From assembly GCF_963521255.1 (NCBI RefSeq), contig NZ_CAUQTU010000010.1, positions 3,866 through 67,865 on the forward strand: 64,000 bases of DNA, written 5' to 3'. How positions within the stretch are numbered: the first letter of the stretch is position 1; each line of letters begins with the position of its first letter. Below are positions 5,800 through 37,741 of the stretch, piece by piece. Under the pieces are notes generated by a model. It saw only the letters and a program-made list of their open reading frames with translations, made no database searches and was not told the DNA's origin. The translations under genes and the position numbers were made by a program. The DNA comes from an uncultured Streptococcus sp. (GTDB lineage: Bacteria > Bacillota > Bacilli > Lactobacillales > Streptococcaceae).

Positions 5800-5906
5800 A
5801 TACTCAATGAAAATCAAAAAGCAAACTAGGAAGCTAGCCGTAAGCTGTACTTGAGTACGGTAAGGCGACGCTGACGTGGTTTGAATTTGATTTTCGAAGA
5901 GTATTA
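5800..5906 (-). repeat. BOX element, short form (boxA + boxC, no boxB)
   Basis: tactcaatgaaaatcaaaaagcaaactaggaagctagcc...ggtttgaatttgattttcgaagagtatta is the reverse complement of the ends of the full BOX copies at 19865 and 54168. Confidence 0.85.
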
Positions 5907-5969
5907 CTGCCCTTCATTTCTTATTAGCTGACTTTATTATATAAATACAAATGGGCTCGAGATAAGTCT

Positions 5970-6107
5970 TTAAAATAAAATATAACCAACTGCCACAAGA
6001 GCTCCAGGACCTAAAAATGCTTTTAGATTTTGCCAAAAATTATTGTTATTCGGAGGTTCAATAGATTGATTGATCTCAGAAAGAGAGACCTTTTGGTAAG
6101 AAGACAT
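5970..6107 (-). pseudogene. mntH: truncated 5' fragment of an Nramp (mntH) gene, 45 codons
   Basis: Own translation: MSSYQKVSLSEINQSIEPPNNNNFWQNLKAFLGPGALVAVGYILF*. It matches residues 1-42 of the intact MntH at 41260..42594 (MSSYEKVSLSEINQSIDTPNNNHFWQNLKVFLGPGALVAVGY), then diverges and stops. Confidence 0.85.
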
Positions 6108-6118
6108 CGGAATATTCA

Positions 6119-6250
6119 CTTTCTAATCTTGTCTTTACCTATTTTATTAATGGATTTTGAAAGAAATATTGAAAATAGTTTCCTATTTCCAATTTAGTCT
6201 TACTACATCACATTTTGAAATGATTCTTCAGGAAAGCACGATAGTTGAAA
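6119..6250 (-). repeat. copy of the mntH upstream leader/promoter module
   Basis: tttctaatcttgtctttacctattttattaatgga...tttcctatttccaatt...ggaaagcacgatagtt aligns with 42790-42918, upstream of the intact mntH. Confidence 0.8.
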
Positions 6251-6322: not shown

Positions 6323-9300
6323 CTAGATCGCTTCTGTGACAAAACTACGGCTTTCCAATACTTTGAGCATGGCGTTAGCTGTATCTAGGGCTGTGAAGAG
6401 GGGCACTCCGTGTTCAATGGCTGAACGACGGATTTGCTCACCATCTTCGTCAGCAGTTCGTTTTGTCCCAACAGTATTAATGATAGCTTGGATTCTTCCT
6501 TTGCGAACAAAGCTTGGAATATCCTTATTATCATCACCAATCTTACCAACAGGTTGGGCTTGCAATCCATGACTGGCAAAGAAGGCTGCTGTCCCTTCTG
6601 TCGCGAGGATTCCATAGCCGATATTTTGGAAACGACGAGCTAAGTCCAAGGCCTCTTCTTTGGCATCATCAGCAATGGTGAAGACTACATTTCCAAAAGT
6701 TGGCAAGTGGAGGTAAGAAGCTTCAAAGGCTTTATAGAGAGCTTTTTCCAAAGTCGTATCAGAACCCATCACTTCACCTGTTGACTTCATTTCAGGACCA
6801 AGTAAGCTGTCTACTTTAGCTAGTTTGGTAAAGGAGAAGACAGGTGCCTTGATATGAACACGGGTGCTTTCAGGGTAAAGTCCATCTTGGTAGCCAAGTT
6901 CTTCAAGTTTTTGACCAAGAATGAGCTTGGTTGCTACTTGAGCCATAGGGATATTGGTCACCTTAGAAAGAAATGGAACCGTACGGCTGGCACGTGGATT
7001 GACCTCAATAACGTAGACTTTTTCATCCTTGATGACAAACTGGATGTTCATCATTCCAAGACAGTTAAGACCGATTGCTAGGCGTTTAGTATAGTCTGCG
7101 ATTGTTTCTTGCACCTTTTGCGACAAGGTTTGTGGTGGGTAAACGGCCATTGAGTCACCTGAGTGGACACCAGCACGTTCGATATGCTCCATGATACCAG
7201 GGATAAGGACATTTTCTCCGTCTGAAATGGCATCAACTTCACACTCTTGTCCAACGATATAAGAGTCTACAAGGACTGGATGGTCAGGACTAGCCTTAAC
7301 AGCTGTACGCATGTAAGAACGAAGATCTTCTTCATTTTCTACGATTTCCATAGCACGTCCACCTAAAACATAAGATGGGCGGACAAGAACTGGGAAGCCA
7401 ATCTTGCGAGCTGCAAGAACTGCTTCTTCTTCATTGGTAGCCGTTTGTCCTGGTGGCTGTGGAATATCCAGGTCTTTTAGAGCTTGCTCGAAGAGGTCAC
7501 GGTCTTCGGCACGGTCTAGGTCAGCAACCTGTGTCCCAAGGATAGTCACACCTGCTTTTGCCAATGGCTCCGCAAGGTTGATAGCTGTTTGACCACCAAA
7601 CTGAACGATAACCCCTTTTGGTTGCTCCAAGTCGATGACATTCATAACATCTTCGAATGTCAATGGCTCAAAGTAAAGCTTGTCTGATACAGAGAAGTCT
7701 GTAGAAACGGTCTCTGGGTTTGAGTTCATGATGATGGCTTCATAGCCAGCAGCCTGAATAGCCTTAACCGAGTGAACAGTTGCGTAGTCAAACTCAACCC
7801 CTTGACCGATACGGATTGGACCTGAACCTAGGACTAGTACAGATTCCTTATCAGATCTGATAGATTCATTTTCCCAACCATAGGTTGAATAGAAGTATGG
7901 TGTTTCAGAGTCAAACTCTGCCGCACAAGTATCTACCATCTTATAAACTGGAACAATCTTGTTTTCCAAGCGAAGTTGGCGAACTTGGTCAGCTGTCGTT
8001 TCCCAGAGTTCAGCAATCTTACGGTCTGAAAATCCATTAAGTTTGGCAGTTTTCAAAACTTCAAGATCTTGTGGATGGGCACCCAACTCCTGCTCAATTT
8101 CAAAGATGTGCAAGAGTTTATCAAGATAGAAGATATCGATTTTTGTAAGCTCTGCAATTTCTTCTGGTGTGTAGCCACGACGAATTGCTTCTGATACGTA
8201 GAAGAGACGGTCATCTTGGGCTTTGACTACTTTTTCAATCAAGGCATCATCAGAAACTGCTGCAAGTTCAGGCATTTCATTGTGGTGCACCCCAATTTCA
8301 AGGGAACGACAAGCTTTAAGAAGAGATTCTTCGATGTTACGACCGATTGCCATGACTTCTCCAGTCGCCTTCATCTGGGTACCAAGACGGCGTTCACCTT
8401 TTTCAAACTTGTCAAATGGGAAACGAGGAATCTTGGCAACCACGTAGTCAAGGGCAGGCTCAAACATGGCATAGGTTGAACCTGTAACTGGGTTAATAAC
8501 CTCATCCAAGGTCAAACCTACTGCAATCTTAGCAGCCAATTTTGCAATCGGATACCCTGTCGCCTTAGATGCCAGGGCTGAAGAACGCGATACACGAGGA
8601 TTTACTTCGATAACATAGTACTTAAAACTGTGTGGGTCAAGTGCTAGCTGAACGTTACATCCACCTTCAATCTTAAGAGCACGAATGATGCTCAAGCTCG
8701 CATCACGTAGCATTTGGTTTTCATAATCTGACATGGTTTGGGCAGGGGCAAATACGATGGAATCCCCTGTGTGAATCCCAACTGGGTCAAAGTTTTCCAT
8801 GTTACAAACAACCAGGGCATTGTCAGCTGAGTCACGCATCACTTCGTATTCGATTTCCTTGAAACCTGCGATTGAACGTTCAATTAAACATTGGGTAACA
8901 GGTGATAATTTCAAACCATTTTCAGCGATTTCACGCAATTCTTCCTCGTTGGCACACATACCACCACCAGTACCACCAAGAGTAAAGGCTGGACGGACGA
9001 TGACTGGGTACCCAATTGTCGCTGCAAAGGCAACTGCTTCTTCTACTGTGTTAACAATTTCAGATTCTGGAATGGGTTGTTCCAATTCTTCCATCAATTG
9101 TTTAAAGAGATCACGATCCTCGGCTTGGTCAATGGCAGATAATTTAGTACCCAGAAGTTCAACACCAAGCTCATCTAGGATGCCATTTTTAGACAATTCC
9201 ATGGCCATATTGAGCCCTGTCTGACCACCGAGTGTTGGCAGCAAGGCATCTGGACGTTCCTTACGAAGAATGCGTGTCACAAACTCAAGTGTAATCGGTT

Positions 9301-11906: not shown

Positions 11907-12570
<664 letters not shown>

Positions 12571-12586
12571 TATTTAGTTATCAAAT

Positions 12587-14072: not shown

Positions 14073-14103
14073 AAAGGTACTAATACTCGGAGGTAAGGGA
14101 GAC

Positions 14104-14115
14104 ATGAACAACTAA
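14104..14115 (+). other. 3-codon mini-ORF (MNN*) behind a strong Shine-Dalgarno
   Basis: GGAGGTAAGGGAGAC-ATG AAC AAC TAA. Located inside the leader of the ABC-F gene, and function is unproven. Confidence 0.3.
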
Positions 14116-14203
14116 GTCTATCAAATAAAGAACCTTTATTTAGTAGATCTTGTTTTTGTCTCTTTTTGTGTGCTCTTTTTATACTAGATTTTCTAGTATC
14201 TTG

Positions 14204-18437: not shown

Positions 18438-18466
18438 GGTTTTTAATGTCATCCCGTGAGGTGACG
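18438..18466 (+). promoter_or_regulatory. PyrR binding loop in the pyrP leader
   Basis: GGUUUUUAAUGUCAUCCCGUGAGGUGACG parallels the pyrR-leader box (UUUAA..GUC..CCCGUGAGG). I could not define the downstream terminator confidently. Confidence 0.6.
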
Positions 18467-18581
18467 AAGACACAGAAATACTTGAAACTCTTTAAAGTCT
18501 AGATTTTAGAGAAGTCTTACTCTGAGGGCCTATTGCTGTAAAATAATGGGCTCTTTTTTGATGCCCAAAAGTGAGGTTTAT

Positions 18582-24690: not shown

Positions 24691-24706
24691 AAGGGTATGA
24701 ATAGAC

Positions 24707-24733
24707 GAAAACCGCTCAGCTGAGCGGTTTTTA
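24707..24733 (+). terminator. intrinsic terminator after the Cof gene
   Basis: aaaACCGCTCAGCTGAGCGGTtttt, a perfect palindromic stem. Confidence 0.85.
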
Positions 24734-24846
24734 GTATGAACATGTCATAATAAGAGTAAATTAATAAATTGAATGGCTGTTGCACAGTCACTAAAATCTT
24801 GAGAGTACAAAAACAAAATGAACAGCTGTTATATCAAATGGAGACT

Positions 24847-25503
24847 TTATAACTCTGGTAATTCTACCTTCAAGCTCATATCTGCAGGCTGCAACACTTT
24901 CTGAACCGCAGCAAGAAAGGCCAATCCATTATCCGATGGAGAATACTGGAATGTGATATGGATGACTTTTTGGTCAAAGTTATCGCCATATCGCTCCACA
25001 TACTGCTTGCTTTCGAGGAAGTAAATGTAGTTGTTGAGTTTTTCTTGCAGAATTTCAAGATGGACTGCTTCTATTTCTTCCTGCCAGCCGACTGGATCCA
25101 CCAGAAGAAGCTCTAAATGACTATCAACTATACCAATTGCATCAAGTTCGCTAGGTTCTAGTTCTGAAACAATGGCTTTATATAACAATTCTTCAAATTC
25201 TTTTTCGGAAAAATAGTGTCTCTTTCTATCTGTATCAATAAGAAGAAATTCTGGATTATCTCTTAAAAATTGTATGTTAGCATCTTCTTGACTAATTTTT
25301 AATTTCCAAAATCCGAAATTAGCATAATTAATTAATTCTTCACCATCATGTTCTCCCGACATGTAACTATCTGCAGCTTCTTTGGGAATTTCTCTAATCA
25401 CTTCTGGGCAGGTAATATTAAAAGTTGGATAACGCAAGAAATACTTATCACCATCTTGACAAATTTCCAACATATCTTTTTGACTAGTATAAATCGACTT
25501 CAT
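24847..25503 (-). CDS. hypothetical two-domain cytoplasmic protein, last gene of the island
   Basis: 218-aa ORF whose start overlaps the stop of the upstream membrane-protein gene by 20 nt. The acidic C-terminal half (VDPVGWQEEIEAVHLEILQEKLNNYIYFLES) is reminiscent of small immunity-type domains. No motif was recognised with certainty. Confidence 0.6.
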   Translation of the reverse strand: MKSIYTSQKDMLEICQDGDKYFLRYPTFNITCPEVIREIPKEAADSYMSGEHDGEELINYANFGFWKLKISQEDANIQFLRDNPEFLLIDTDRKRHYFSEKEFEELLYKAIVSELEPSELDAIGIVDSHLELLLVDPVGWQEEIEAVHLEILQEKLNNYIYFLESKQYVERYGDNFDQKVIHITFQYSPSDNGLAFLAAVQKVLQPADMSLKVELPEL

Positions 25504-26404
25504 TTTTAATAGCTATTAGCTCCTTGTATTTTTTTAAATATTTTTTTCCATACCACTCTTCTAAAGTTTTTCCCTCCCACTCGCGGTATTCTTCAGGATA
25601 TTTCCATTTATAGTAGGCTTGTAGCATATAGGGAAACATGAAATAAACTTCAAAAGCAGCAACTAAAATATTAAGAATCAGTATTGAAGCCAAAATACCG
25701 AGTCCTCCAATCAAATTATTCCTATTCTCCATCGAACTTGAGAAAAAAATACGAATGACTAGCCAAATTGCTACAACCAAACCACCATACTTGGCAATTA
25801 TGCTAAACATCTTGCCGAAGAATTTATCACTAAAACTTTTCTTTAGAGTTGTCCCATATAACAAAATTCTTAATGACTCACACTCAGAAAGAATCATTAA
25901 AATAATTATTAATAATATCAATCCTACAAAAGTGAACATTCCCCAAAATCCAGCTACTGCATAAATTAAGTTTAGAGAAAAAAGATTGAGTTCAACAACT
26001 AGCCAGATAATAAAGGTAACCATAAAATGGAATTGGCCCCTATAAATCAAAATAAACTGCTGGTTGTATCGCTTCCCTAGTATAATCAATAAAAGCCATA
26101 TTGCAAGTGCTATCCAAAATACCCAGTACGGAAGAAAATTAATGTCGGGTAAAGGGACTGTTAAATCTCTAGGATCAGAATGGTAAAATAAATAATCATT
26201 TAAAGCTATAATCAACCAATTGGGACCAATTATAAATAGGAAAGTCAGAATTACCAGCCAAACATATGATTTTTTTGTTCCTCTAAATTGCTCTTTTTTT
26301 AAAGCATCTTGGTAATTGTCCCGAGCAAATTTCCCTGAGACGCCATCATCTAATAAATTTAAACTCAACTCAAAACTTGCTTTAAATAGTGACTTTTTTG
26401 TCAT
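25484..26404 (-). CDS. six-TM membrane protein, paralog 1 of 3 (unknown family)
   Basis: ATG 26404 behind GAGGA (MTKKSLFKASFELSLNLLDDG). Six hydrophobic segments. Conserved tail YKWKYPEEYREWEGKTLEEWYGKKYLKKYKEL. Confidence 0.75.
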   Translation of the reverse strand: MTKKSLFKASFELSLNLLDDGVSGKFARDNYQDALKKEQFRGTKKSYVWLVILTFLFIIGPNWLIIALNDYLFYHSDPRDLTVPLPDINFLPYWVFWIALAIWLLLIILGKRYNQQFILIYRGQFHFMVTFIIWLVVELNLFSLNLIYAVAGFWGMFTFVGLILLIIILMILSECESLRILLYGTTLKKSFSDKFFGKMFSIIAKYGGLVVAIWLVIRIFFSSSMENRNNLIGGLGILASILILNILVAAFEVYFMFPYMLQAYYKWKYPEEYREWEGKTLEEWYGKKYLKKYKELIAIKNEVDLY

Positions 26405-26408
26405 AAGT

Positions 26409-27305
26409 TTAATCCTCAATCTTCTTTTCTACTAATTCTGAGTGCTTTTTCAAGTATCTCTTTCCATACCATTCTTCCACTGATTTTCCTTCCCATTCAC
26501 GGTATTCTTCGGAATATTTCCATTTGTAGAATCCTTGTAAATAACTAGGAAATTCGATGTAAATTAGCATAGCAATCACAGCAATATTTAGGATAATCCA
26601 TGTTATCAAAAGACCTAATCCTTCCAATAAAGTTGAAAATTTTATGGAAAAACTTTTTATAATAAAGTTTATAATGACTCCAATTCCCAAAAAACTCATT
26701 CCATAAATCGCTATCTTATTGACAATTTTGTTTCGAAGAGAAGAGCCACTTCCATTACCATACATCAGTTTTGTAAGACTTTCAATTTCAAGGCTAAACA
26801 TAAAATAGGCTAATATAGTAATAAAAACAAAAATCGCAGCAACCATCCAAATAGATAAAGTTGGTAATGACATATCAATCGCTAACAGATTAAATTCAAG
26901 ACTAAGCCAAATTAGAAATGTGATGACATGAAAATGATTACGATAAGGCAGTATAAAAGCTTTTCTAAAAACTTTACCAATCAATATGATAAATACCCAA
27001 ATTAAGAAACAGACTAGATATACCTCAGCTGTTAGTAATGGATGTTGATAGATAGGCAATCTTAAATCTTTAGGATCAGAGTTGTGCAAGGACAGCGAGA
27101 AAACAAGAATCATAAAGTTTATAATGACAGGACCGATAAGAGTGAAAACAATATTCTGAATATGAAGAACTAGTTTAGACTTTCCTTCCCTATAATATGT
27201 TTCTAACTTAGAGAAAACATTTCCTTTCTGATACTGTAAAAAACCATCATCTTCTAGATTAAGACTTTCTTCAAAACTTGCACTAAAAATTGATTTCTTC
27301 TTCAT
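26409..27305 (-). CDS. six-TM membrane protein, paralog 2 of 3
   Basis: ATG 27305 behind AGGTGA (MKKKSIFSASFEESLNLEDDG). Same architecture, with tail YKWKYSEEYREWEGKSVEEWYGKRYLKKHSEL. Confidence 0.75.
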   Translation of the reverse strand: MKKKSIFSASFEESLNLEDDGFLQYQKGNVFSKLETYYREGKSKLVLHIQNIVFTLIGPVIINFMILVFSLSLHNSDPKDLRLPIYQHPLLTAEVYLVCFLIWVFIILIGKVFRKAFILPYRNHFHVITFLIWLSLEFNLLAIDMSLPTLSIWMVAAIFVFITILAYFMFSLEIESLTKLMYGNGSGSSLRNKIVNKIAIYGMSFLGIGVIINFIIKSFSIKFSTLLEGLGLLITWIILNIAVIAMLIYIEFPSYLQGFYKWKYSEEYREWEGKSVEEWYGKRYLKKHSELVEKKIED

Positions 27306-27321
27306 ACTTTTCACCTAAATC

Positions 27322-28203
27322 CTATTTTAATAACTCCTTGTGTTTTTTTAAATATTTTTTTCCATACCATTCTTCTACTGTTTTCCCTTCCCACTCGCGG
27401 TATTCTTCAGGGTATTTCCACTTGTAATAGCCTTCTAAAAAGAAAGGAAACTCCATGAATACAATCATGGCGATTACACCAATATTTGATAGAATCCAAA
27501 ATATAAAGAGACCTAAAAGAGTTACGGAAGAGGAAAAATTAATAGAAAAAGCTTTGAAAATATAATTAACAATCACAGCCAAGCCCAATATACCTGCTCC
27601 ATAAATAGCAAGGCCTTTGGCAATTTTATCGAGTAAGGTAGGTGACTTAACTTCTCCATACATTCGTTTTTTCAAACTTCTAACCTCTGTTCTTAACATT
27701 ACATAAGTCAACAATACTTGAAGCCCAAAAAGTACTAAGATCCCCCATATTGATAATATAGGTAAAGACATAGTTGTTGCCAGCAGATTAAATTCAAACA
27801 CAAACCATATTATAAAAGTTATAATATGAAATCGATAACGATAAGGGAGAATAAACGTCCGTTTAAAGAATTTACCCATTAATACCAATAACAACCAAAT
27901 TAACAAGCAAATCAAATAAAGCTCGACTGTTAGCAAAGGATACTGAGAAACTGGTAACCTTAAATCTTTAGGATCAGAATTTTGCAATGATAGGGTAACA
28001 GCAAGGAGCATGAAATTTGCACCTATCGGAAACAACAGACTAAAAATAAAAGTTTTAATACCAAACCAAAAAGAGGGGCTCCCTTTCTTAAAGGCTTTCC
28101 CAAGTTTATTATAATAATCTTTTTTCTGATACTGTAAAAACCCATCATCTAATAAATTTAAACTCTCCTCAAAACTTGCTTTAAAAATTGATTTCTTTTT
28201 CAT
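27322..28203 (-). CDS. six-TM membrane protein, paralog 3 of 3
   Basis: ATG 28203 (MKKKSIFKASFEESLNLLDDG). Tail YKWKYPEEYREWEGKTVEEWYGKKYLKKHKEL. The ORF-track N-terminal extension overlaps the upstream gene and was dropped. Confidence 0.75.
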   Translation of the reverse strand: MKKKSIFKASFEESLNLLDDGFLQYQKKDYYNKLGKAFKKGSPSFWFGIKTFIFSLLFPIGANFMLLAVTLSLQNSDPKDLRLPVSQYPLLTVELYLICLLIWLLLVLMGKFFKRTFILPYRYRFHIITFIIWFVFEFNLLATTMSLPILSIWGILVLFGLQVLLTYVMLRTEVRSLKKRMYGEVKSPTLLDKIAKGLAIYGAGILGLAVIVNYIFKAFSINFSSSVTLLGLFIFWILSNIGVIAMIVFMEFPFFLEGYYKWKYPEEYREWEGKTVEEWYGKKYLKKHKELLK

Positions 28204-28219
28204 AAACAGATACCTAAAT

Positions 28220-28903
28220 TTAATTTTTACTTTGATTTGATAAAACATCAACTATCTCATATTCCCGTTCTTCTCCAGGTGCAAATGCAATGTTGACAGT
28301 CCCTAGAAATATGAACATTATTAACATCATTAAACAAAGCATGCTAATGTTCTTCAAATATATGAATGCCAGAGCAAATATAAGAGTTAAGGCAAAAATA
28401 CATAGTCGCAATAGAAACATTTTGACATAAAAACGTAATGAATTTACTGGTTTTATCTTAAAATTAATAGATTGCTCCAACGATCTATTGAGTAATTTTT
28501 CCAAAGTTTTTTTCTTTTTAGAATATAAAAGTTGAAGCAAACTAAAAGACAATAATAGACCAATAACTACTAAAACCAAGCTAGTTACTATCGAAAGATT
28601 CACATAAAAGTTGGCAAATAAATCAATATGATTCATACGAGCCCAGGCATTCACAAAAACTGCTAATCCTGCGGCTAATGACGTTGGAAGGATAAATTTG
28701 CTCGCCTTAGAGTTTTTTTCTTCGATTTTAACAAGTTCTTCATCTGAAATAGCATAAACTTTCTGATAAAAATACCAGTTTAGAGGCAAACAGAAGTATC
28801 CGAGAAAATGTTTAGGAGATCTATCTAATAGATACTGTCTCCCCTGATAATGAAATAATAGGTATCGAAGATTCCCTTTATAATATAATTTTATTTTTTG
28901 CAT
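28220..28903 (-). CDS. tandem five-TM membrane protein (DUF443/TsaI-like)
   Basis: 227 aa. N-terminus MQKIKLYYKGNLRYLLFHYQGRQYLLDRSPKH followed by 4-5 TM helices. Paralogous to the next gene. Confidence 0.7.
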   Translation of the reverse strand: MQKIKLYYKGNLRYLLFHYQGRQYLLDRSPKHFLGYFCLPLNWYFYQKVYAISDEELVKIEEKNSKASKFILPTSLAAGLAVFVNAWARMNHIDLFANFYVNLSIVTSLVLVVIGLLLSFSLLQLLYSKKKKTLEKLLNRSLEQSINFKIKPVNSLRFYVKMFLLRLCIFALTLIFALAFIYLKNISMLCLMMLIMFIFLGTVNIAFAPGEEREYEIVDVLSNQSKN

Positions 28904-28975
28904 TCTAATCCTTACTAATCTAAAAAAACATGAGTTCTTCCAAACTATGAGGAGTATCTCGATATAATCTACATC

Positions 28976-29641
28976 TTATTTTAGTATTTTATCATTTATT
29001 TTATATAAGTGATGACTTTCAGTTCCAAATGCAACATTAGAAGCCGATAAATATAGAAAGATGATGGCATTTGCCATTAAACCAAAAAGTAAGTTCCCTG
29101 AGTAAAAATAATACAAGGACATAAAAAATGCTAGTCCACCAAAAACCACTATAAATCCTAGCAACTGTTTAAAGTCAATTTTTACTGGCGTGATTTTATA
29201 GTATTGTAAATGCCTAAGTTCACGCCCTAGCAAGGAGGCCATCCTTCTTTTCCGAGAATAGTAAAATAATTCAACCAGAACATATGTTAAAAGAAAAGTC
29301 ATTAAAAAGAGTGCCACTGTCGTAAAACTTGAAAGATTCGTTTCAAAATACTTAGTAATATCAATCTTGTTCACGCGTAACCAATTATATAAAAAGACAC
29401 TCAGTCCAGCACCGAGTGAAGCTGAAACAGTGAGTTTTGTATCACGTCCATTTTTTTCTTTTATTTTACAGTACTCATCCGATGTAATAGGATACACATG
29501 TTGAAAGAAAAGCAAATTTATAGGTGGAAAAAGATATCCTATCAAATGACATGGCCTTCTATCAAGTAAATAGTATTGATGATTGAATTCAAATACTAAA
29601 TAACGAAAATTTCCATAAGTAAAACGAATTTTTTCCATCAT
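28976..29641 (-). CDS. tandem five-TM membrane protein (DUF443/TsaI-like)
   Basis: 221 aa. N-terminus MMEKIRFTYGNFRYLVFEFNHQYYLLDRRPCH, with the same layout as 28220..28903. Confidence 0.7.
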   Translation of the reverse strand: MMEKIRFTYGNFRYLVFEFNHQYYLLDRRPCHLIGYLFPPINLLFFQHVYPITSDEYCKIKEKNGRDTKLTVSASLGAGLSVFLYNWLRVNKIDITKYFETNLSSFTTVALFLMTFLLTYVLVELFYYSRKRRMASLLGRELRHLQYYKITPVKIDFKQLLGFIVVFGGLAFFMSLYYFYSGNLLFGLMANAIIFLYLSASNVAFGTESHHLYKINDKILK

Positions 29642-29712
29642 TTCTCATTAGTCACAAACAAATCACTTTTACTTATTCCCTCTGAACTATACCCTAACAA
29701 GGTAGCATCATA

Positions 29713-30252
29713 TTAATCTCCTAATCCATTTGCATCATTCAGTTGAATCATCCATTCCTTAATAGTTTTTAATTTTACGATTGATACATAGAAGGTTTGA
29801 AATATTCTGTTTGGCAGGCAAAATAGATTGTATTCATTGTCACTTGCATCTATGTAATAAATCTTGTTTAATTTTGTAGAAAAATTTATTTTTCCTTTAG
29901 TTCTAGAATCAACCGAATAAAAGTCATCCAGTTGTTCTCTAGTTAAGTATTCTTTCAATATTTCAATATCTTCTATATCATTTATTAAAGTCATCAGTGG
30001 AAATTCAAAATCTGTAACTCCTCTTTTAACAAATATAGCAAAATATAGTTGCGCTAACTCCTTGTTACTAATTTTACAATATTCTAAAATAACCCCTCTT
30101 TCATTTACTAAAATGAAAAATTCGTCTTCTCTTTTTTCTAGAATATAAATCATATCCACATTATCATATGCCTGCAACTTGTTATTTATTGAAACAATTT
30201 CGACATTGCTGATAAACCTTTTCAAACTTACAATATATTCATTATCAAACAT
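29713..30252 (-). CDS. hypothetical cytoplasmic protein
   Basis: 179-181 aa ORF. ATG 30252 lies 6 nt after GAGGAA. No recognisable motif. Confidence 0.6.
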   Translation of the reverse strand: MFDNEYIVSLKRFISNVEIVSINNKLQAYDNVDMIYILEKREDEFFILVNERGVILEYCKISNKELAQLYFAIFVKRGVTDFEFPLMTLINDIEDIEILKEYLTREQLDDFYSVDSRTKGKINFSTKLNKIYYIDASDNEYNLFCLPNRIFQTFYVSIVKLKTIKEWMIQLNDANGLGD

Positions 30253-30373
30253 TATCATTTCCTCGAAACAGATTCCATTTTTTTCTTCTATTAGATTGAA
30301 ACCACAGTATCACAACATTACTTTTCAATAGAATTTAAAAAGTTATCAATAAATTGTGGCCCAATAATAAGAA

Positions 30374-31369
30374 CTATTTTGATTGTTTATATAAGTGTTC
30401 TAGTAATTGCCGACATTTTTCGTCAATCAATTCTCTATTAGCCAGCTGATAAATCCATTTTTCTGGGATGCCTTCCAGTTGATAGTGGGCTCCAGCCAAG
30501 GTACCTGTAATGGCACCGATGGTATCTGTATCCCCTCCAAGATTAATGGCTTTTAGAACAGCTTCTTCAAAACTATCTGTTGTACCTAAACACCAGAGAC
30601 AAGCCTTCAAGGTATCAACAACATAGCCTGTGGAAGCAATATCTTCCATAGATTTTTGATAAAATTCTCTATCAAATATTTCTCTAAAATGTTCCTGATA
30701 CTCTTCCCAGTATTCTGATTTTTTCTTGAAATAATCTTCAAGATAAGGTTTTGATTGACAAAGTAATTTTTCTAAACGAATGTTAAGAAGAAAACCGATT
30801 AAAAGCTGGACATAAAGAATAGATGCCACGATAGACCTTGGATGAGCATGAGTCAGCTTAGTATATTTCTCAATTATTTTTGATCTATAACTGAAATCAA
30901 AATTTTCATATAAGAGCAAAGCTAAGGGAGATATCCTCATCAGAGCTCCATTGCCATTATCTCTCTCACTAGTTCCTCCACATTTCTCTGGAGAGACTCC
31001 TGCCAAATACCGTTCAATCGCCTGATTAGTCGCAACACCAATATCAAAGCAGTATCCAAAAGGTGTGAGGTAGCCCTGACGATAAGCTACAAATTTATCC
31101 ATCAACCCATTCAAATCAGAATCCTCACATAGGTGTTCAATAAGTGCTAAGGATAAAGAAGTATCATCTGACCAGGTACCAGCTGGTTGATTATAGGTTC
31201 CATAACCCACCATATCTGAAATATGATAGGTATCTCTATTTCTGAACTCTACAGGGACTCCCAGTGCATCACCTATAGCTAGACCAAAGATAACCGAATT
31301 TATCTTTTGTTTAAGATTATATCTTCTATACTGATTTGAATCATCTTCCCATTTATCTTTTAATCTCAT
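30374..31369 (-). CDS. ADP-ribosylglycohydrolase (ARH/DraG family)
   Basis: 331 aa. Family motifs GDALGVPVEF near the N-terminus, WSDDTS, and GGDTDTIGAITGTLAGA near the C-terminus (binuclear metal site). AGGAG Shine-Dalgarno. Confidence 0.85.
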   Translation of the reverse strand: MRLKDKWEDDSNQYRRYNLKQKINSVIFGLAIGDALGVPVEFRNRDTYHISDMVGYGTYNQPAGTWSDDTSLSLALIEHLCEDSDLNGLMDKFVAYRQGYLTPFGYCFDIGVATNQAIERYLAGVSPEKCGGTSERDNGNGALMRISPLALLLYENFDFSYRSKIIEKYTKLTHAHPRSIVASILYVQLLIGFLLNIRLEKLLCQSKPYLEDYFKKKSEYWEEYQEHFREIFDREFYQKSMEDIASTGYVVDTLKACLWCLGTTDSFEEAVLKAINLGGDTDTIGAITGTLAGAHYQLEGIPEKWIYQLANRELIDEKCRQLLEHLYKQSK

Positions 31370-31553
31370 AGTCTTCTCCTATTGTATTAAATCCATTTTT
31401 AGAATAATTTTATCATCAACTATCTGCTGATTATTTCTTCCCTGAAACATATTTATCTTCTCTTTTGTCCTAACCAAACTTTAGCTAGTTCTCAATGACC
31501 TAGAAAGCTAAACAGATCTTTTACAAAATTCACATATCCTGCCTCAAATTAAA

Positions 31554-32201
31554 TCATTTTCCTTCCTCGTCCCATAGCGGCGAAGGATAGGGGTGTGAAA
31601 AGCCAAGTTCATTTGCCAACTGTTCCGCATGAACTGTCTGACTAAGAATCTTAAAGAATTCATCCTTTGCTTCCTTCATCGTATTAAACTCCCATGTTTT
31701 CCCTACAATATATGAGCGTTCATCCCTACTGTTAATCTGAAACTTACCATTTTTAAAAAACAAATGTGTTGCCCACGGTTTCCTGCTATCTTCATCAAAC
31801 AAGACATAATACAAGCTTTCAAGACCTCGTTCTTTAATCTCCTTTTCCACTATATTTTTTAAAGTTTCGATATCGATATCTAGTTTACCCCATAGTGGAG
31901 AAGGATATTGTGGCACAAAGCCATTGGAAATATAGTACTTATTTCTTGAAACGGTATGGTCTAACAATTCCAAAAATTTTTCTTTTGCATCAGGAAAATC
32001 AGAATACTCAAAAACTCTTCCTTTTCCAGCCCTATCCCTTGTTAAATATACCTCATACTTATGAGTTTGAGGATTGAGTTCAATTCTCGTTTCCCACTCC
32101 CAGGGATTATGGTCATTGAAAATTGAAAATCTCAAACTATCATAGCCTCGTTTTTGAATCTCCGATAAAAGCTCCGATCGTTCTTGCTCTCTATTAAACA
32201 T
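31554..32201 (-). CDS. two-module protein (A-module + B-module of an unknown about 105-aa family ending in SPLW)
   Basis: Residues 1-106 resemble the product of 34464..34793. Residues 107-215 resemble the product of 34809..35135. Both halves end in YPSPLW(G/D). Confidence 0.75.
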   Translation of the reverse strand: MFNREQERSELLSEIQKRGYDSLRFSIFNDHNPWEWETRIELNPQTHKYEVYLTRDRAGKGRVFEYSDFPDAKEKFLELLDHTVSRNKYYISNGFVPQYPSPLWGKLDIDIETLKNIVEKEIKERGLESLYYVLFDEDSRKPWATHLFFKNGKFQINSRDERSYIVGKTWEFNTMKEAKDEFFKILSQTVHAEQLANELGFSHPYPSPLWDEEGK

Positions 32202-32230
32202 TGTTCCTTTTCTCCTCTAAGATTTTGAGA

Positions 32231-32581
32231 CTACAACCATCCCTTGGCTTTTAAAAACTTATCTGGAATACGAAGCTCGAGCTCATCCTTGATTCCTTTT
32301 AGGTATTCATCCCAATCTGTTATTTGGCTGTATACAGCTGGCTCTTTGGTCAGGGATAAGTTCACTTCTTTCGTTAATACAATGAAGAACTCGCAGAGGT
32401 CATTCTCATAATCAAATTCAATAGTAAAGTAATCGTAAGACTTAAAGTCTATTTTAAACGCATGATAGTTGGCTTCTTCAACAACATCATAAATACTAGA
32501 AGAATCCATCTTATGATCAAAATAAGTTCGAATCATTCGGCTCGTTTCTACAGCAAACTTATCGGTTTCATTTAATTTCAA
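32231..32581 (-). CDS. hypothetical small acidic protein
   Basis: 116-aa ORF with a TTG start 9 nt after GAGGAG. Confidence 0.55.
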   Translation of the reverse strand: MKLNETDKFAVETSRMIRTYFDHKMDSSSIYDVVEEANYHAFKIDFKSYDYFTIEFDYENDLCEFFIVLTKEVNLSLTKEPAVYSQITDWDEYLKGIKDELELRIPDKFLKAKGWL

Positions 32582-32626
32582 AATATTATTCTCCTCAAAG
32601 ACATCATTTCTTTAAAATCTATTTGG

Positions 32627-33028
32627 TCAATTCTTTAATAAAACTTCCGCTCTATCTGAATCTATAAAGTCTTTCAATAGTTGCAAGGTGTGTTCAACAG
32701 ACTTTTCATCACGGCCATACACTCTTCTTATACTCTTAACATCAATAACCTTGGATAAAAAAGTGATTGAAAATCTCTGTTCATCCATTTGAGTGAACCA
32801 AATGTTAAACAAGCCACCCTCTCCAACTTCCAATTGCCTATTTTTACCGGTTGATGATATCCCCATCGTCATATGATATCCCTTATACGCGAATGGAAAA
32901 TTAAAATTTTCATCTTCTCCTTCATGAATGGCAATCGTATCAAGGTCAATCGAAAAAATTTTCTCTAAAACTTGTTTGACATTCTGATAACCTAAACTAT
33001 CTCTTGTAGGTAAGTAACCTTCGCTCAT
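32627..33028 (-). CDS. hypothetical small protein
   Basis: 133-aa ORF with a GGAGG Shine-Dalgarno. Confidence 0.6.
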   Translation of the reverse strand: MSEGYLPTRDSLGYQNVKQVLEKIFSIDLDTIAIHEGEDENFNFPFAYKGYHMTMGISSTGKNRQLEVGEGGLFNIWFTQMDEQRFSITFLSKVIDVKSIRRVYGRDEKSVEHTLQLLKDFIDSDRAEVLLKN

Positions 33029-33119
33029 TTACGAGACCTCCAAATATTTTCGAAATTCTCAAACTTCTATTACTTTGATAGAGTCAAATCAACTATTTTC
33101 CCCGTCTTTATATCGACTT

Positions 33120-33392
33120 TTAATCTTCTGTCGAATAAAGCCAGTCTTCTCTCAAAGTCATCTGTTCAAAGGGATAACTATTATTGCTGTATCCACTATT
33201 ATTTATCGTCCAGACTACATTTCCACTCGCATCAATCCTTAAAATGTTATTCTTTTCACTCTCATTATCAAAAGGAATCTCCAATAAAACAATAAATTCG
33301 TCACCGTGTTCAATTATATTTCGGATTTCAAATGTAAAAGATTTGATAATTTCACCATTTTCTATTAGCTGATGTTTTTTATATTCTAGCAT
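33120..33392 (-). CDS. hypothetical small protein
   Basis: 90-aa ORF in the same orientation and with the same codon style as its neighbours. Confidence 0.5.
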   Translation of the reverse strand: MLEYKKHQLIENGEIIKSFTFEIRNIIEHGDEFIVLLEIPFDNESEKNNILRIDASGNVVWTINNSGYSNNSYPFEQMTLREDWLYSTED

Positions 33393-33485
33393 TGTATCAA
33401 CCTTTCATCTGAGAATACCTACGTTAATCATTCTTTTAATCGTTTCTTCGTATTCTTGTTAAATCAATATCCTTTCATCACACTG

Positions 33486-33959
33486 CTAATCCTGTAACAT
33501 AGCTAAAAACTCTGTAAAGTTATTAGCTACAAACTCTATAGCAGGATCCAGCTCGTACGATTCCTCATGATACCAGATACACATGCTTGGATTTTCGGAA
33601 TTCTCGACATAATTTAGACAGAGAAAATCTCCACCATACAATGCTACTATGGGAATCAACTCAAATCCCAAAATATCTTCATGGACAAACAATCTTTCAT
33701 CCAGTTGGGACATTACAACATCAATGTCATACATGCCAAGTGGATTGTCTTTTGAATTCTCTAACACACACAAGAATCGCTCGATTAAAAAGGACCTATT
33801 TGTTACTGAAAATAAATTTTTGGAAGGGCGAAAACCATTTTTTCTCATTATAAAATTCTTATAATCATCAGGCAGTTTAACTCTCCACGCTACTTCTCTT
33901 TCATTTAATAGCGCATCAGTTGGCAAGGGGGAGATAATCGATTGATCTTGTTGTGTCAT
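33486..33959 (-). CDS. SMI1/KNR4 (SUKH-1) family immunity-type protein
   Basis: 157 aa. KLPDDYKNFIMRKNGF near the N-terminus, IPIVALYGGDFLCLNY, and a C-terminal FTEFLAMLQ. This is the typical SUKH layout. Confidence 0.8.
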   Translation of the reverse strand: MTQQDQSIISPLPTDALLNEREVAWRVKLPDDYKNFIMRKNGFRPSKNLFSVTNRSFLIERFLCVLENSKDNPLGMYDIDVVMSQLDERLFVHEDILGFELIPIVALYGGDFLCLNYVENSENPSMCIWYHEESYELDPAIEFVANNFTEFLAMLQD

Positions 33960-33968
33960 ATTCTTCTC

Positions 33969-34412
33969 CTACTGTTCCTCGCTTTTCACTTCCTCAAACC
34001 ATTTTTCAAACTCTAGACGTGGAAGCAATTCTTCATCCTTCTCATAACGCCCTTCATAGCTATAGCGACTATTAAGGGTATTTTTCTGTGCATCATAAAT
34101 CAACCACATCTCAGTCGGATGTTCACGATTATATTCTTGGCAAACCTCCTGCAATTTCTGCATATCTTTAGTTCCATATTTCAATAAAGCAAATGCCATA
34201 TTATCAGAATCATCTACTTTTTTTGTCGCAACTTCATTAACTTTTTCCATTCCAATTACAATACCATTAATTTTATAAAATGGCTTAAAACTATACAAAC
34301 TGTCCGCTATCGCATAGATATATACTTTTTCTGCTTGATTTTGGACATATTCCATTGCTAACGAAATCATACCTACTTGAACTTCCATAAATTTATCTTC
34401 GAATTGTGTCAT
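33969..34412 (-). CDS. YezG/EsaG (DUF600)-like immunity-type protein
   Basis: 147 aa. AEKVYIYAIAD...FKPFYKING and EMWLIYDAQKNTLNSRYSYE recall the WEKVY.YA / two-half layout of DUF600 proteins. This assignment is from memory only. Confidence 0.5.
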   Translation of the reverse strand: MTQFEDKFMEVQVGMISLAMEYVQNQAEKVYIYAIADSLYSFKPFYKINGIVIGMEKVNEVATKKVDDSDNMAFALLKYGTKDMQKLQEVCQEYNREHPTEMWLIYDAQKNTLNSRYSYEGRYEKDEELLPRLEFEKWFEEVKSEEQ

Positions 34413-34463
34413 AATATCTCCTTGTATTTGTATCTTATTGATTCTAACTTATCTTAGCACTTG

Positions 34464-34793
34464 TTATTCTGTTTCATTATCCCATAATGGAGAGGAGTAT
34501 TCAGGAACTTCCCCATTTTCTACAAAAAGTTTATTTATTTCTAGAGTAAGATCTAGTTTTTCTAGAAATTTATTTTTAGCATCCTCAAAATTATAGAATT
34601 CCAATTTTTTATTAAAACTTGCTCGATCCATGGTAGCGTAGACATTGTACACTTGCTTAGAATCGTCATATTCGATTACCACTTCCCATTCACTAGGACC
34701 ATATTCGTTAAAGATAGAATACCTCAAGCTCTCGTAACCTAAATCATGAATGGCTGACAACAGTTCTAAACGTTCTTGGGCTTCATCTCTCAT
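34464..34793 (-). CDS. single A-module protein (SPLW family)
   Basis: 109 aa. MRDEAQERLELLSAIHDLGYESLRYSIFNE...EYSSPLWDNETE. AAGGAGG Shine-Dalgarno. Confidence 0.7.
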   Translation of the reverse strand: MRDEAQERLELLSAIHDLGYESLRYSIFNEYGPSEWEVVIEYDDSKQVYNVYATMDRASFNKKLEFYNFEDAKNKFLEKLDLTLEINKLFVENGEVPEYSSPLWDNETE

Positions 34794-34808
34794 CTTTGCT
34801 TGACCTCC

Positions 34809-35135
34809 TTATTTATCCCACAAACTACATGAATAGTAGGGTGAATCTCCATTCTGTACAAAATATCTGTTCATTTCGATAAAAGACTCCATTAAATTAA
34901 GAAAAAATAGTTTTGCCTCTTCAAAATTGTCAAACTCCCTTGTTTTCCCCATTATATAGGTCCGGTCGTCTCGACTATTTACCATAAACTTCCCATCTCG
35001 ATAGTATAGATGTATGGCCCAAAGTTGACTACTATGTTCATCAAATAGAGCATAATAAAGATTTTCAAAGCCTTTTTCTCTGATTTCTTTTTCTACATCT
35101 TGTTTTAACAAATCTAAATTCAAATTATTATTCAT
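34809..35135 (-). CDS. single B-module protein (SPLW family)
   Basis: 108 aa. LLKQDVEKEIREKGFENLYYALFDE...GKFMVNSRDDRTYIMGKTREF...YYSCSLWDK. Confidence 0.65.
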   Translation of the reverse strand: MNNNLNLDLLKQDVEKEIREKGFENLYYALFDEHSSQLWAIHLYYRDGKFMVNSRDDRTYIMGKTREFDNFEEAKLFFLNLMESFIEMNRYFVQNGDSPYYSCSLWDK

Positions 35136-35185
35136 ATTATTGTCCCAATTAACAGTTTATCTATAGAGTGTTACAAGTCCCATCA

Positions 35186-35728
35186 CTATTTCTCAATAAT
35201 GGAAAAACGTTCATTTTTTTGATATTTTTGATTCAATCTTTCCAGCTGGTTCATTGGTTTTATTTTAACAAGACCGTTTGGGAAAGTGATGCTGTCGTTC
35301 AATTCCTCTTGATAATCCTTAATTCCTTTAGCAATTGCTTGGGCAACTGTCGACGTATGGATTGTAAAACTAGCTATATTTTTTTCTTGCATAAAAAGGA
35401 TTGCATCAAAAAACAAAACCGAAATATACAAATCAACAGCAGAACGCTGCGATAACTCTATAAGATCGCCTTCTAATATATCTTGAATCTTATCAATATC
35501 ATTCTGCTTGTAGAAATACTCAGCTAATACTTGGCAAATATCAGTCGGAAAAAGATCTGGTACAGAGGTCGGAGGATCTATGCGATATCTTTTTTCACCT
35601 CTCAAAATCCCTGCAACATTGCCAGCTTGGATAGCTTCTAACAAGAGTTTTCTGTAATTTTTCATTTGATAATCTCTCTTATCTCCAATTTCGAAGAGAC
35701 TTAGTTCGTTCTCTGCAAAATTTACCAT
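35186..35728 (-). CDS. hypothetical protein
   Basis: 180-aa ORF with a weak Shine-Dalgarno and no motif recognised. Confidence 0.5.
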   Translation of the reverse strand: MVNFAENELSLFEIGDKRDYQMKNYRKLLLEAIQAGNVAGILRGEKRYRIDPPTSVPDLFPTDICQVLAEYFYKQNDIDKIQDILEGDLIELSQRSAVDLYISVLFFDAILFMQEKNIASFTIHTSTVAQAIAKGIKDYQEELNDSITFPNGLVKIKPMNQLERLNQKYQKNERFSIIEK

Positions 35729-35780
35729 TTTGTTTTTATTAAGATTAGTTTCCGCTTTTTAATCGCTACTCGCTAGAATT

Positions 35781-36143
35781 TCAGCACCTTCGGGTAAATA
35801 TTTCTTCCAGTTCGGCCTTTGTGAATAAGCCTTGCGCTTTAGGATTTCCTCTTAAAGCTTCTGGATATTGCCTCAGGAAATTTCTATCAGCTTCTTCTTG
35901 TGTCACGTTCGGTGGCCAATAATCGTATTTAACCTTGCAAGATATTTCAAGTAGAGTCCGTTCTCCACTCTCTAGTAAGGTAAATAATTCATTTGGTAAA
36001 TCATAGACTGCTAACCAAGAAGCCACGGTTCCTTCTTCAAAAACTAAATAATACTTGTCCTCATTTCTCCAGATGGATTTCCCGTATCCTTTAACTTCTT
36101 CAAACTTAATAACATCTTCCCATTCTAGTTTTGTTGATTTCAT
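35781..36143 (-). CDS. hypothetical protein, paralog pair member (KLxWEDVIxFxEVKGYGKSIWRNEDKYYLV family)
   Basis: 120 aa. The first 75 residues are close to those of 36156..36578, and the DNA is near-identical over about 55 nt. Confidence 0.7.
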   Translation of the reverse strand: MKSTKLEWEDVIKFEEVKGYGKSIWRNEDKYYLVFEEGTVASWLAVYDLPNELFTLLESGERTLLEISCKVKYDYWPPNVTQEEADRNFLRQYPEALRGNPKAQGLFTKAELEEIFTRRC

Positions 36144-36155
36144 TCTATACCTCTT

Positions 36156-36578
36156 TTACTTAAGTGGCGATACATAATCATCTGGAAGTTTGCCCATTGA
36201 TTCTATCCATTGTTGTTCAGCTTGGGGAATAAGTTTTTCAAGTTCTTTATTACTAAAAAGCAACTGATTTTTACGGTTGGAAATCAGCACAATTGGCTTT
36301 TTTCTAGCTCTATCTTTTCTAATTTCGTTCTTTTCTTCTTCCGTCGGTGGCCAACAATCGTTCTGAATCTTCCAAGATACTTCGACTAGTGATCTCTCTC
36401 CACTATCTAATAGGGAGAATAATTCCTGGGGTAAATCATAGACAACTAACCAAGAAGCTATGGTCCCTTCTTCTAAAACCAAATAATACTTGTCCTCATT
36501 TCTCCAGATGGATTTCCCGTATCCTTTAACTTCTTTGAACTGGATAACATCTTCCCATTGTAGTTTTGTTGGTTTCAT
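36156..36578 (-). CDS. hypothetical protein, paralog pair member
   Basis: Start moved to ATG 36578 (MKPTKLQWEDV) behind GGAG, by analogy with the paralog (MKSTKLEWEDV). Confidence 0.7.
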   Translation of the reverse strand: MKPTKLQWEDVIQFKEVKGYGKSIWRNEDKYYLVLEEGTIASWLVVYDLPQELFSLLDSGERSLVEVSWKIQNDCWPPTEEEKNEIRKDRARKKPIVLISNRKNQLLFSNKELEKLIPQAEQQWIESMGKLPDDYVSPLK

Positions 36579-36648
36579 TTGTTTTCTCCTAGTATAAATT
36601 CTTCTCTCAACCAAAATATCGTAAAAATCAGGTTTCTATTTCTCTTCA

Positions 36649-37206
36649 TCAATAGGCTACGCCTTCTTTTACCCATTTTCTAGTTTCTAAATCTAAATTA
36701 AAATAGAAATCACTTCGACCAGATTTATCAAAACAATCCTCTTTAAGAGCCTCGCATACAATTCTCAGTTTCTTCTTACTTATCTCAGAAATATATAACA
36801 TAGTAAATCCTGCAGGAGATTCAATTTGATCCATTTTTTCACCTTCTAAATTATAAATCTCTAATTCTGATGGTATATCAAAATTGCTTGATGAGCGACA
36901 TATACTGAAGATACGCTGATTGTTAGGGTTAAAGCAAAGATGATGTAAATGTTGAAAAATAACCTGATGCTTCCCATTATGATTCCAATCTAGGGTTCCT
37001 TCTAGTAGATTTTGTTTCCCTAACAATTTTCCTTCTAAACTAAAGTAGAAAATGATTTTGCTTACAAAGTTTTCTCCACTATAGACGATAACAATGTTCT
37101 CATCTTTATTATATTCCGCATGAATGATATCTGGTAGTTCTATCTTTATTACAGAACCATCCCACTCCCATATGACCATCCGGTCACTGTAATCGATTTT
37201 CATCAT
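36649..37206 (-). CDS. hypothetical protein
   Basis: 185-aa ORF with an AGGAG Shine-Dalgarno. Confidence 0.6.
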   Translation of the reverse strand: MMKIDYSDRMVIWEWDGSVIKIELPDIIHAEYNKDENIVIVYSGENFVSKIIFYFSLEGKLLGKQNLLEGTLDWNHNGKHQVIFQHLHHLCFNPNNQRIFSICRSSSNFDIPSELEIYNLEGEKMDQIESPAGFTMLYISEISKKKLRIVCEALKEDCFDKSGRSDFYFNLDLETRKWVKEGVAY

Positions 37207-37223
37207 CCTTCTCCTAGTCTAAC

Positions 37224-37457
37224 TCAAATAAATTCAATCTGTATTGTTTGCTCAGTCATCATGGAATCCACTTCCTCGACAAGTTTATCTATCTCGTTCT
37301 GTGTGATAGGAATGTGATTGTAAGGTGGCTCCCAATTCTGTATACTTGACCTATATACAAGAAAACTATTATCAGTCAGCAGTTCTCCCTCTGCTTTTAA
37401 AACATAGCCATTTTCATAGTCAAAAGTAATGTTACCGCTTGTCCCAGAAATTTTCAT
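37224..37457 (-). CDS. hypothetical small protein, first gene of the island
   Basis: 77-aa ORF with a GAAGGA Shine-Dalgarno. Confidence 0.55.
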   Translation of the reverse strand: MKISGTSGNITFDYENGYVLKAEGELLTDNSFLVYRSSIQNWEPPYNHIPITQNEIDKLVEEVDSMMTEQTIQIEFI

Positions 37458-37669: not shown

Positions 37670-37741
37670 TGCCCCCTGCCGGAATCGAACCAGCAACTAC
37701 TCCTTAGGAGGGAGTTGTTATATCCATTGAACTAAGGGAGC
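37670..37741 (-). tRNA. tRNA-Arg (anticodon CCU)
   Basis: Minus strand reads GCTCCCTTAGTTCAATGGATATAACAACTCCCTCCTAAGGAGTAGTTGCTGGTTCGATTCCGGCAGGGGGCA. It folds with a 7-bp acceptor stem, an anticodon stem ACTCC/GGAGT with loop CTCCTAA, and a T-arm GCTGG-TTCGATT-CCGGC. CCA is not encoded. Confidence 0.9.

Follow-up and report, generated by a model that had tools for sequence, protein, structure and literature searches.

To our knowledge, enzymatic immunity is rare among polymorphic-toxin systems and has been shown experimentally mainly for the Tre1/Tri1 pair of the Gram-negative type VI secretion system (T6SS). The concept that an ADP-ribosylglycohydrolase (ARH) can act as an immunity protein is already established: enzymes of family PF03747 were described in 2012 as the immunity family Imm-ADP-RGHD, or Imm-ARG, strictly associated with Tox-ART-RSE toxins, including those of the firmicute type VII secretion system (T7SS) of the WXG/LXG kind (Zhang, Aravind et al. 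2012, PMC3482391), Tre1/Tri1 followed in 2018 and a Listeria structure (8za7) in 2025, and orphan immunity genes are known in both T7SS and T6SS. In Listeria monocytogenes, lmo0067 adjoins lmo0066, which encodes a T7SS toxin and belongs to a hypervariable hotspot (PMC5417603). The characterised pairs in a 2026 review of Lactobacillales T7SSb toxins include neither a toxin that ADP-ribosylates proteins nor an ARH immunity protein. Here we describe an ARH gene in a 64,000-nucleotide stretch of DNA from an uncultured Streptococcus sp., referred to below as the window. We consider it probable that this gene is an orphan antidote left over from an ART-ARH module (ART, ADP-ribosyltransferase) whose toxin was deleted, and that it would protect against injected ART toxins mainly by catalysis. 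Specific to this locus are a streptococcal orphan predicted to act by catalysis only, the identification of its cognate toxin, and a graded series of toxin deletions.

Toxin scar and toxin-linked orthologues of the ARH gene

The first-pass annotation of the window had placed a 331-residue ARH without a partner ART in this region and had proposed that it is a stand-alone, Tri1-like antidote. The open reading frame (ORF) was found exactly where it had been placed (Table 1), on the minus strand, while the plus-strand frame over the same interval is full of stops. An iterated ART hidden Markov model (HMM) gave no match in the window, and tblastn with three ART toxins gave just a 13-codon remnant. 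Neither search thus revealed a hidden ART gene, and the claim that no partner lies nearby is borne out. In this remnant, toxin residues 480-492 aligned to window positions 31420..31382, directly upstream of ARH. By blastn, window 31421..30353 matched positions 7707..8775 of a streptococcal toxin locus (L105) at 96% and the corresponding locus of Streptococcus sp. oral taxon 058 F0407 (L104) at 97%. The DNA match thus reaches 52 nt upstream of the ARH start and takes in a 9-nt spacer with the ribosome-binding site, the toxin stop and the last 13 toxin codons, which read VDDKIILKMDLIQ before the stop in the window and VDNNIILKMDLIE before the stop in the intact toxin. In a three-way alignment, similarity to the intact toxin genes drops abruptly at about 31421. 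The window hence keeps a 43-nt scar of the cognate toxin gene.

The antidote reading is further supported by homologues that still stand beside a toxin: at 96%, 65% and 51% identity, they follow streptococcal and Bacillus ART toxin genes after a gap of 10-14 bp. In L105, an ARH that is 96% identical (318/331) starts 10 bp after a 492-residue ADPrib_exo_Tox gene, in a T7SS/LXG cluster that also has DUF4176, a YwqH-like gene and an LXG toxin. In L104, an ART toxin is likewise followed after 10 bp by ARH, with 292/304 residues identical; this copy (1335-2273) has 312 residues, lacks one codon near residue 96 and diverges at its C-terminus after about residue 303, differences that a frameshift might explain, or faulty assembly of this older draft genome. 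A 65% identical ARH begins 14 bp after an ADPrib_exo_Tox ORF in Streptococcus sp. SS-4456 (L030), where the locus further contains LXG, WXG100 and DUF5081 genes and two nuclease toxins. Finally, several B. subtilis genomes carry a 51% identical ARH 13 bp after a 680-residue toxin that combines LXG and ADPrib_exo_Tox domains.

Full-length streptococcal ART toxins were recovered by a search with the L030 toxin as query, and the L105 toxin matched PF03496 with E=5.9e-35. The motifs YRGT, ST[SA] and ExE were invariant in seven ARH-linked toxins, which we therefore assigned to the R-S-ExE clade. ExE is typical of arginine-specific transferases, and weak matches of these toxins to PF01129 ('NAD:arginine ART') fit the arginine type. 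No Pfam-detectable LXG domain was found in the streptococcal ART toxins. Their N-terminal region recurs in numerous polymorphic toxins of S. suis, S. equi and S. oralis whose C-terminal domains are different, for example TNT, and would correspond to the 'MSE' module of PMC12558993.

Loss of the toxin was not confined to the window. Five S. peroris-group genomes (L024-L028) carry ARH at 93-96% identity without an intact toxin, the closest named genome being S. peroris ATCC 700780 (96% ARH identity). The retained 3' end of the toxin measured 251 bp in that strain (L024), 147 bp in L026, about 83 bp in each of L027 and L028, 43 bp in the window and 8 bp in L025. The left-hand breakpoints of the cassette and the neighbouring genes also differ among the orphan genomes, with Imm74 abutting ARH in L025. 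Since retained lengths and neighbours both differ, the toxin body has been lost several times independently, each time sparing ARH. About 3 kb upstream of ARH, L026 still has a stretch (2662-3612) that matches the N-terminal portion of the ART toxin gene, the part for delivery, at 84% identity. This stretch is presumably joined to another kind of C-terminal toxin domain, in which case a cassette was exchanged and not simply deleted.

To place the gene in its wider family, we surveyed the neighbourhoods of homologues of at least 40% identity in 80 genome loci. PF03496 was present in 10 of the 37 sizeable upstream neighbours, and 15 of the 80 loci proved to contain an ART domain when scanned with the iterated HMM. 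A neighbour-joining (NJ) tree, which is distance-based and carries no support values, grouped ARH in a Bacilli clade together with Lmo0067, the Bacillus copies linked to LXG-ART toxins and a pair from S. suis and L030, leaving Tri1 outside. In S. suis arrays, a gene with a NADAR domain lies one to two genes upstream of the orphan ARH (L017 6374-6667, L018 2820-3113, L019 1157-1450). NADAR is another family of ADP-ribose-removing enzymes, and these S. suis islands may hold two enzymatic antidotes each. Homologues of 430-500 residues with extra N- or C-terminal regions were seen in L022 (P0101), L052, L058, L059, L065, L075, L078 and L103; P0101 (L022 6582-8006) has an N-terminal extension of about 130 residues and lies between TNT and Colicin-DNase toxin fragments. 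These long forms could be bifunctional, Tri1-like variants.

Fold, active site and selection

ARH belongs to the ARH/DraG-like ADP-ribosylglycohydrolase superfamily, since the PF03747 (ADP_ribosyl_GH) profile matched it in full (positions 2-286 of 287; E=6.9e-71; 239.7 bits, cutoff 26.2). Its top NCBIfam model was the Tri1 ADP-ribosylarginine hydrolase, NF041672, with 204.6 bits, followed by the DraG model TIGR02662 with 133 bits, below its equivalog cutoff of 337. Among sequences in the Protein Data Bank (PDB), the best match was Listeria Lmo0067 (8za7, E=1.5e-88), then Serratia Tri1 (6dre, E=1.2e-46), and after these a Thermus ARH, MJ1187, DraG, ARH3 and ARH1. The AlphaFold2 model had the all-alpha ARH fold, with a mean predicted local distance difference test score of 94.2 and a predicted template-modelling score of 0.93. 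Comparing it with the PDB by Foldseek gave template-modelling scores of 0.93 for 8za7, 0.77-0.79 for Tri1 and 0.72-0.76 for DraG, with ARH3 next. Both the profile and the closest structures thus agree with the proposed likeness to Tri1.

The three ARH/DraG motifs reported in the first-pass annotation, GDALGVPVEF (residues 33-42), WSDDTS (66-71) and GGDTDTIGAITGTLAGA (278-294), are all present. To map the active site, we read off matching residues in a HMMER alignment of ARH with the DraG of Azospirillum (3g9d). E28 of DraG corresponded to E41 of ARH, T59-D60-D61 to S67-D68-D69, D97 to D109, and D243, D245 and T246 to D280, D282 and T283; E28, D60 and D97 are the 'E-D-D' residues given for DraG and Tri1 (PMC8120803). 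The predicted metal and catalytic residues of ARH are accordingly E41, S67-D68-D69-T70, D109, D280, D282 and T283. All metal-site and catalytic residues of DraG and Tri1 are intact, and the same positions are invariant across 32 aligned homologues. The annotation had named two findings as fatal to its proposal, substituted catalytic residues and orthologues tied to a metabolic operon; we found instead that the residues are conserved on the DraG alignment and that close orthologues lie in toxin/immunity arrays. ARH is hence predicted to remove ADP-ribose from proteins, with a putative specificity for ADP-ribosyl-arginine. Expression of the gene, enzymatic activity of its product, actual protection and the breadth of that protection are all inferred here.

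Selection on the gene was measured by the Nei-Gojobori ratio of nonsynonymous to synonymous substitution (dN/dS), which was 0.10-0.41 in 21/21 pairs, and the orphan ORFs were all intact. These values show purifying selection on ARH. We also compared abundance: ARH sequences number 1622 in the 98%-identity cluster, against about 44 in total for the oral-streptococcal toxin clusters among the matches listed (P0123-P0131), a rough comparison because clustering and search seeds differ and most contigs are short. Read with that reservation, the excess of ARH over toxin is the pattern expected if immunity is preferentially retained.

Several observations weigh against an antidote that is retained for immunity. 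ARH falls below the equivalog cutoff of NF041672 (204.6 versus 490 bits), because of which strict orthology with Tri1 is not established. Many relatives of 40-45% identity in Clostridia, Bacteroidota and spirochaetes have non-toxin neighbours such as GNAT, MgtC and SIR2, implying that the immunity role belongs to particular clades and not to the whole superfamily. Between orphans, dN/dS was 0.14-0.41 and tended to lie slightly above the 0.10-0.25 found between orphan and toxin-linked copies; with small substitution counts, this is compatible with some relaxed constraint. Moreover, no promoter- or terminator-like site above shuffled expectation flanks ARH, so that a dedicated promoter or terminator was rejected and transcription would rely on read-through within the array.

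Part of this evidence would suit a gene that is a non-functional relic of a decayed module, conferring no benefit and having acquired no disabling mutations yet: the toxin is gone except for its scar, no promoter-like site of its own was found, and dN/dS between orphans rises to 0.41. A relic, however, would not be expected to keep its ORF and catalytic residues intact in at least six orphan contexts with different deletion breakpoints. Every pairwise dN/dS is below 0.45, the ribosome-binding site is conserved, and the cluster sizes, rough as they are, also argue for retention. We regard a relic as unlikely, though it is the rival that survives best.

N-terminus, mode of protection and the remaining alternatives

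Tri1 protects by two modes, and its N-terminal extension bears a helix, residues 27-33, that plugs the active site of Tre1 (PMC11606950). The NCBIfam Tri1 match placed ARH residues 5-324 on model positions 51-357, with Tri1 residue 71 aligned to ARH residue 22. Since the match begins only at model position 51, the extension of about 50 residues with its occluding helix is absent from ARH, and it was not found in either the NCBIfam or the PDB alignments. In the AlphaFold2 model, residues 3-40 of ARH form one long helix. Within residues 1-20 (window 31309-31369, minus strand) lies a motif, R-x-x-[DE]-[KR]-W-E-D-D-[SN], whose conservation across the toxin-linked clade extends from Streptococcus to Bacillus; the model places this motif within the long helix, and it might contact the toxin.

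Neutralisation mainly by stoichiometric binding, with catalysis dispensable, would have precedents, because Tri1 uses both modes and most polymorphic-toxin immunity proteins are binders (PMC3482391). Against it stand the missing occluding extension, the incorporation of the ARH N-terminus into the modelled helix, and the invariance of the active-site residues across the clade, on which grounds we judge a binding-only mode very improbable. With no Tri1-type extension, protection by ARH would instead be mainly catalytic, and for that reason less bound to a single toxin sequence and potentially cross-protective. Tri1 itself reverses modification by non-cognate ARTs, and cross-protection has been reported (PMC11606950), making broad protection by ARH plausible by analogy.

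The favoured reading, an orphan antidote of the ART-ARH type, can be laid out as follows. ARH would formerly have stood in a two-gene module downstream of a T7SS-delivered R-S-ExE (arginine-type) ART toxin, whose gene was later deleted while the antidote was retained. A neighbouring streptococcus that injects the cognate or a related toxin would cause essential cytoplasmic proteins to be ADP-ribosylated, and the two-metal site of ARH (E41, D68/D69, D109 and D280/D282/T283) would hydrolyse the bond between ADP-ribose and protein, restoring the targets, with catalysis as the main mode in a protein that has no plug. A bolder version is that the orphan ARH gives mitis-group streptococci a catalysis-only broad shield against many diverse arginine-type ART toxins; its range would cover the streptococcal MSE/LXG-ART types and possibly Bacillus- or Tre1-like ARTs. 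We put this forward tentatively and lean somewhat against it, although, if true, it would explain why ARH is far commoner than the toxin and why it survives repeated toxin deletions.

The superfamily also includes regulators such as DraG and metabolite hydrolases, and the 40-45% homologues with unrelated neighbours could be taken to mean that ARH is a housekeeping or DraG-like regulator, or hydrolyses free derivatives of ADP-ribose, and sits in the island by chance. The score for the DraG model, far short of its cutoff, and a window that contains no nif, draT or ART gene led us to reject a DraG-type nitrogenase regulator. For a housekeeping enzyme in general, the position inside a low-GC, variable array next to a toxin scar, the coupling of a 96%-identical orthologue to its toxin by a 10-bp spacer, and an NJ clade made up of Bacilli copies only, several of them toxin-linked, leave very little room, and we hold it to be highly improbable. 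An anti-phage role, in which ARH reverses the ADP-ribosylation of host proteins by phage-encoded ARTs, would in principle be mechanistically possible for any promiscuous ADP-ribosyl-arginine hydrolase, but we give it hardly any weight, as PADLOC gave no match for ARH or nine of its neighbours, Pfam scans revealed no phage or defence-system genes in the island, and the cognate partner is a T7SS-type polymorphic toxin.

If ARH is an orphan antidote, oral streptococci offer a natural experiment: L104 and L105 have the antidote together with its toxin, the window, S. peroris and relatives have the antidote alone, and the breakpoints of the toxin deletions form a graded series. An antidote without a toxin-plugging extension would also make catalysis alone, its share in immunity and its part in cross-protection directly testable.

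The surrounding immunity array and comparison with known systems

ARH lies in an array of co-oriented genes (Table 1), which would otherwise be hypothetical and which the locus helps to annotate as a T7SS immunity repertoire over 12.6 kb. In the order of transcription, the array runs Imm74, four unknowns, two Imm59, u147, SUKH, DUF7957, u133, u116, a tandem Imm59, ARH, u181, two DUF443, three multi-transmembrane paralogues of about 300 residues, and DUF6572. The first-pass annotation had spoken of a block of SUKH/YezG-like genes: the SUKH gene is there, in the company of three Imm59 genes, Imm74, two DUF443 and DUF6572, whereas YezG-like members had no Pfam or PDB support. Pfam scans and the iterated ART HMM detected no ART or other toxin domain in the scanned array genes. 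The G+C content of the array is 29-36%, against 40-43% in its flanks. Identical arrays occur in human-associated metagenome contigs of the European Nucleotide Archive (ENA), and in the relatives L024-L028 the content is mosaic, that is, variable between strains. With several immunity families, no cognate toxins and a content that varies among strains, the array is an orphan immunity island.

Table 1. Positions of the ARH gene, its toxin scar and other features of the window
Feature	Position	Strand	Basis or remark
ARH coding sequence, 331 residues	30374..31369	minus	ATG start; probable orphan Imm-ARG/Tri1-like immunity gene
Toxin 3' remnant, last 13 codons VDDKIILKMDLIQ and TAG stop, 43 nt	31379..31421	minus	blastn, three-way alignment, tblastn
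ARH cassette shared with the L105 and L104 toxin-immunity modules	30353..31421	minus	blastn, 96-97% DNA identity
Shine-Dalgarno-like AGGAGAAG; overlaps the toxin stop and is separated from the ARH ATG by 3 nt	31373..31380	minus	conserved with toxin-linked loci
Array of 21 co-oriented genes, 12.6 kb, rich in immunity families, no toxin gene	24847..37457	minus	Pfam/NCBIfam, identical contigs
218-residue protein with C-terminal DUF6572 (EIC-CR)	24847..25503	minus	PF20212, E=1.6e-28
Three tandem multi-transmembrane paralogues, about 300 residues each	25484-28251	minus	
Two DUF443/tandem-five-transmembrane genes	28220..29641	minus	PF04276, TIGR01218
181-residue gene downstream of ARH	29713-30258		among related loci, homologues solely in window-identical contigs
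u116, 116 residues	32231-32581	minus	homologues in L026 and L105
SUKH gene	33486-33959		profile match
u147, unannotated 147-residue family, candidate nuclease-toxin immunity	33969..34412	minus	L030 homologues
tRNA-Arg (CCT), then terminator hairpin; proximal island boundary	37670..37741	minus	

Several neighbours of ARH have counterparts beside toxins elsewhere. TsaI, which gives immunity to the membrane-depolarising S. aureus T7SS toxin TspA, is a DUF443 protein (PMC9484751). The DUF6572 'EIC-CR' domain sits on immunity proteins paired with the MSE-ExT T7SS toxins of S. suis (PMC12558993), where it is reported to bind EssC and to aid export of the cognate toxin; the orphan DUF6572 protein of the window lacks a toxin that it could help to export, and a homologue lies near an LXG toxin in L104. 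For u147 there was no Pfam or PDB sequence match; its homologues in L030 (6688-7122 and 8594-9043) directly follow two Endonuclea_NS_2/PT-TG toxins, three tandem copies occur in S. peroris (L024 7736-9091), and it is probably an undescribed family of nuclease-toxin immunity proteins. The u116 gene has nine tandem paralogues in L026 (9614-13712), and in L105 a copy (5797-6147) shortly precedes the ART toxin; this pattern resembles polyimmunity, in a family that has no name yet. The three multi-transmembrane paralogues, for which no Pfam match was obtained, have a near-identical C-terminal tail, YKWKYPEEYREWEGK..EEWYGK.YLKK, and may give immunity at the membrane while sharing one cytoplasmic module. 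A fixed partnership of ARH with the 181-residue gene was rejected, given where the homologues of that gene are found, and the 179-residue neighbours of ARH in Gemella are unrelated to it.

On its proximal side the island begins right after a tRNA-Arg(CCT) and its terminator hairpin, with rplS on the far side of these two. A search of the distal boundary (24691-24846) for an att-like repeat of the 3' end of this tRNA was negative, and Pfam scans of the island genes detected no integrase, recombinase or mobile element; with neither an att-like repeat nor an integrase, a mobile-island signature was rejected. No essC-sized T7SS gene lies within the window. Rfam matches above the gathering score lay at 14079-14177 (+), 18446-18540 (+) and 12440-12572 (-); they comprise the Streptococcus small RNAs SpF43 and SpF44 as well as a PyrR binding site, and fit a mitis-group streptococcal chromosome.

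Set against the systems described so far, the ARH of the window is closest to Lmo0067 of Listeria monocytogenes, deposited as part of an 'ART-ARH type toxin effector-immunity protein pair' (8za7), on which our literature search found no paper. It is the nearest solved structure, has the same length and falls in the same NJ clade; it differs in that its gene stands beside its toxin whereas the window ARH has lost the toxin, in its genus, and in a Foldseek identity of 43%. The Tri1 protein of Serratia proteamaculans (6dre/6drh), which gives immunity to an R-S-E ART toxin and whose enzymatic reversal works on non-cognate toxins too, shares with ARH the DraG-like domain, down to the E-D-D and metal residues; unlike ARH, it is T6SS-associated and Gram-negative, carries the N-terminal toxin-plugging extension, and reaches a Foldseek identity of about 30%. 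DraG has the same fold and the same catalytic residues, but its context is nitrogenase and DraT and its biological role is different. The window ARH fits the Imm-ADP-RGHD family, although the definition of that family rests on toxin adjacency, which survives here as a 43-nt scar alone. Finally, the array resembles known orphan immunity arrays, such as esaG in S. aureus without esaD and the T6SS islands of gut bacteria, in having no cognate toxins and in varying between strains (PMC9484751). Those examples, however, are of binding-type immunity, whereas the array described here includes an enzyme.

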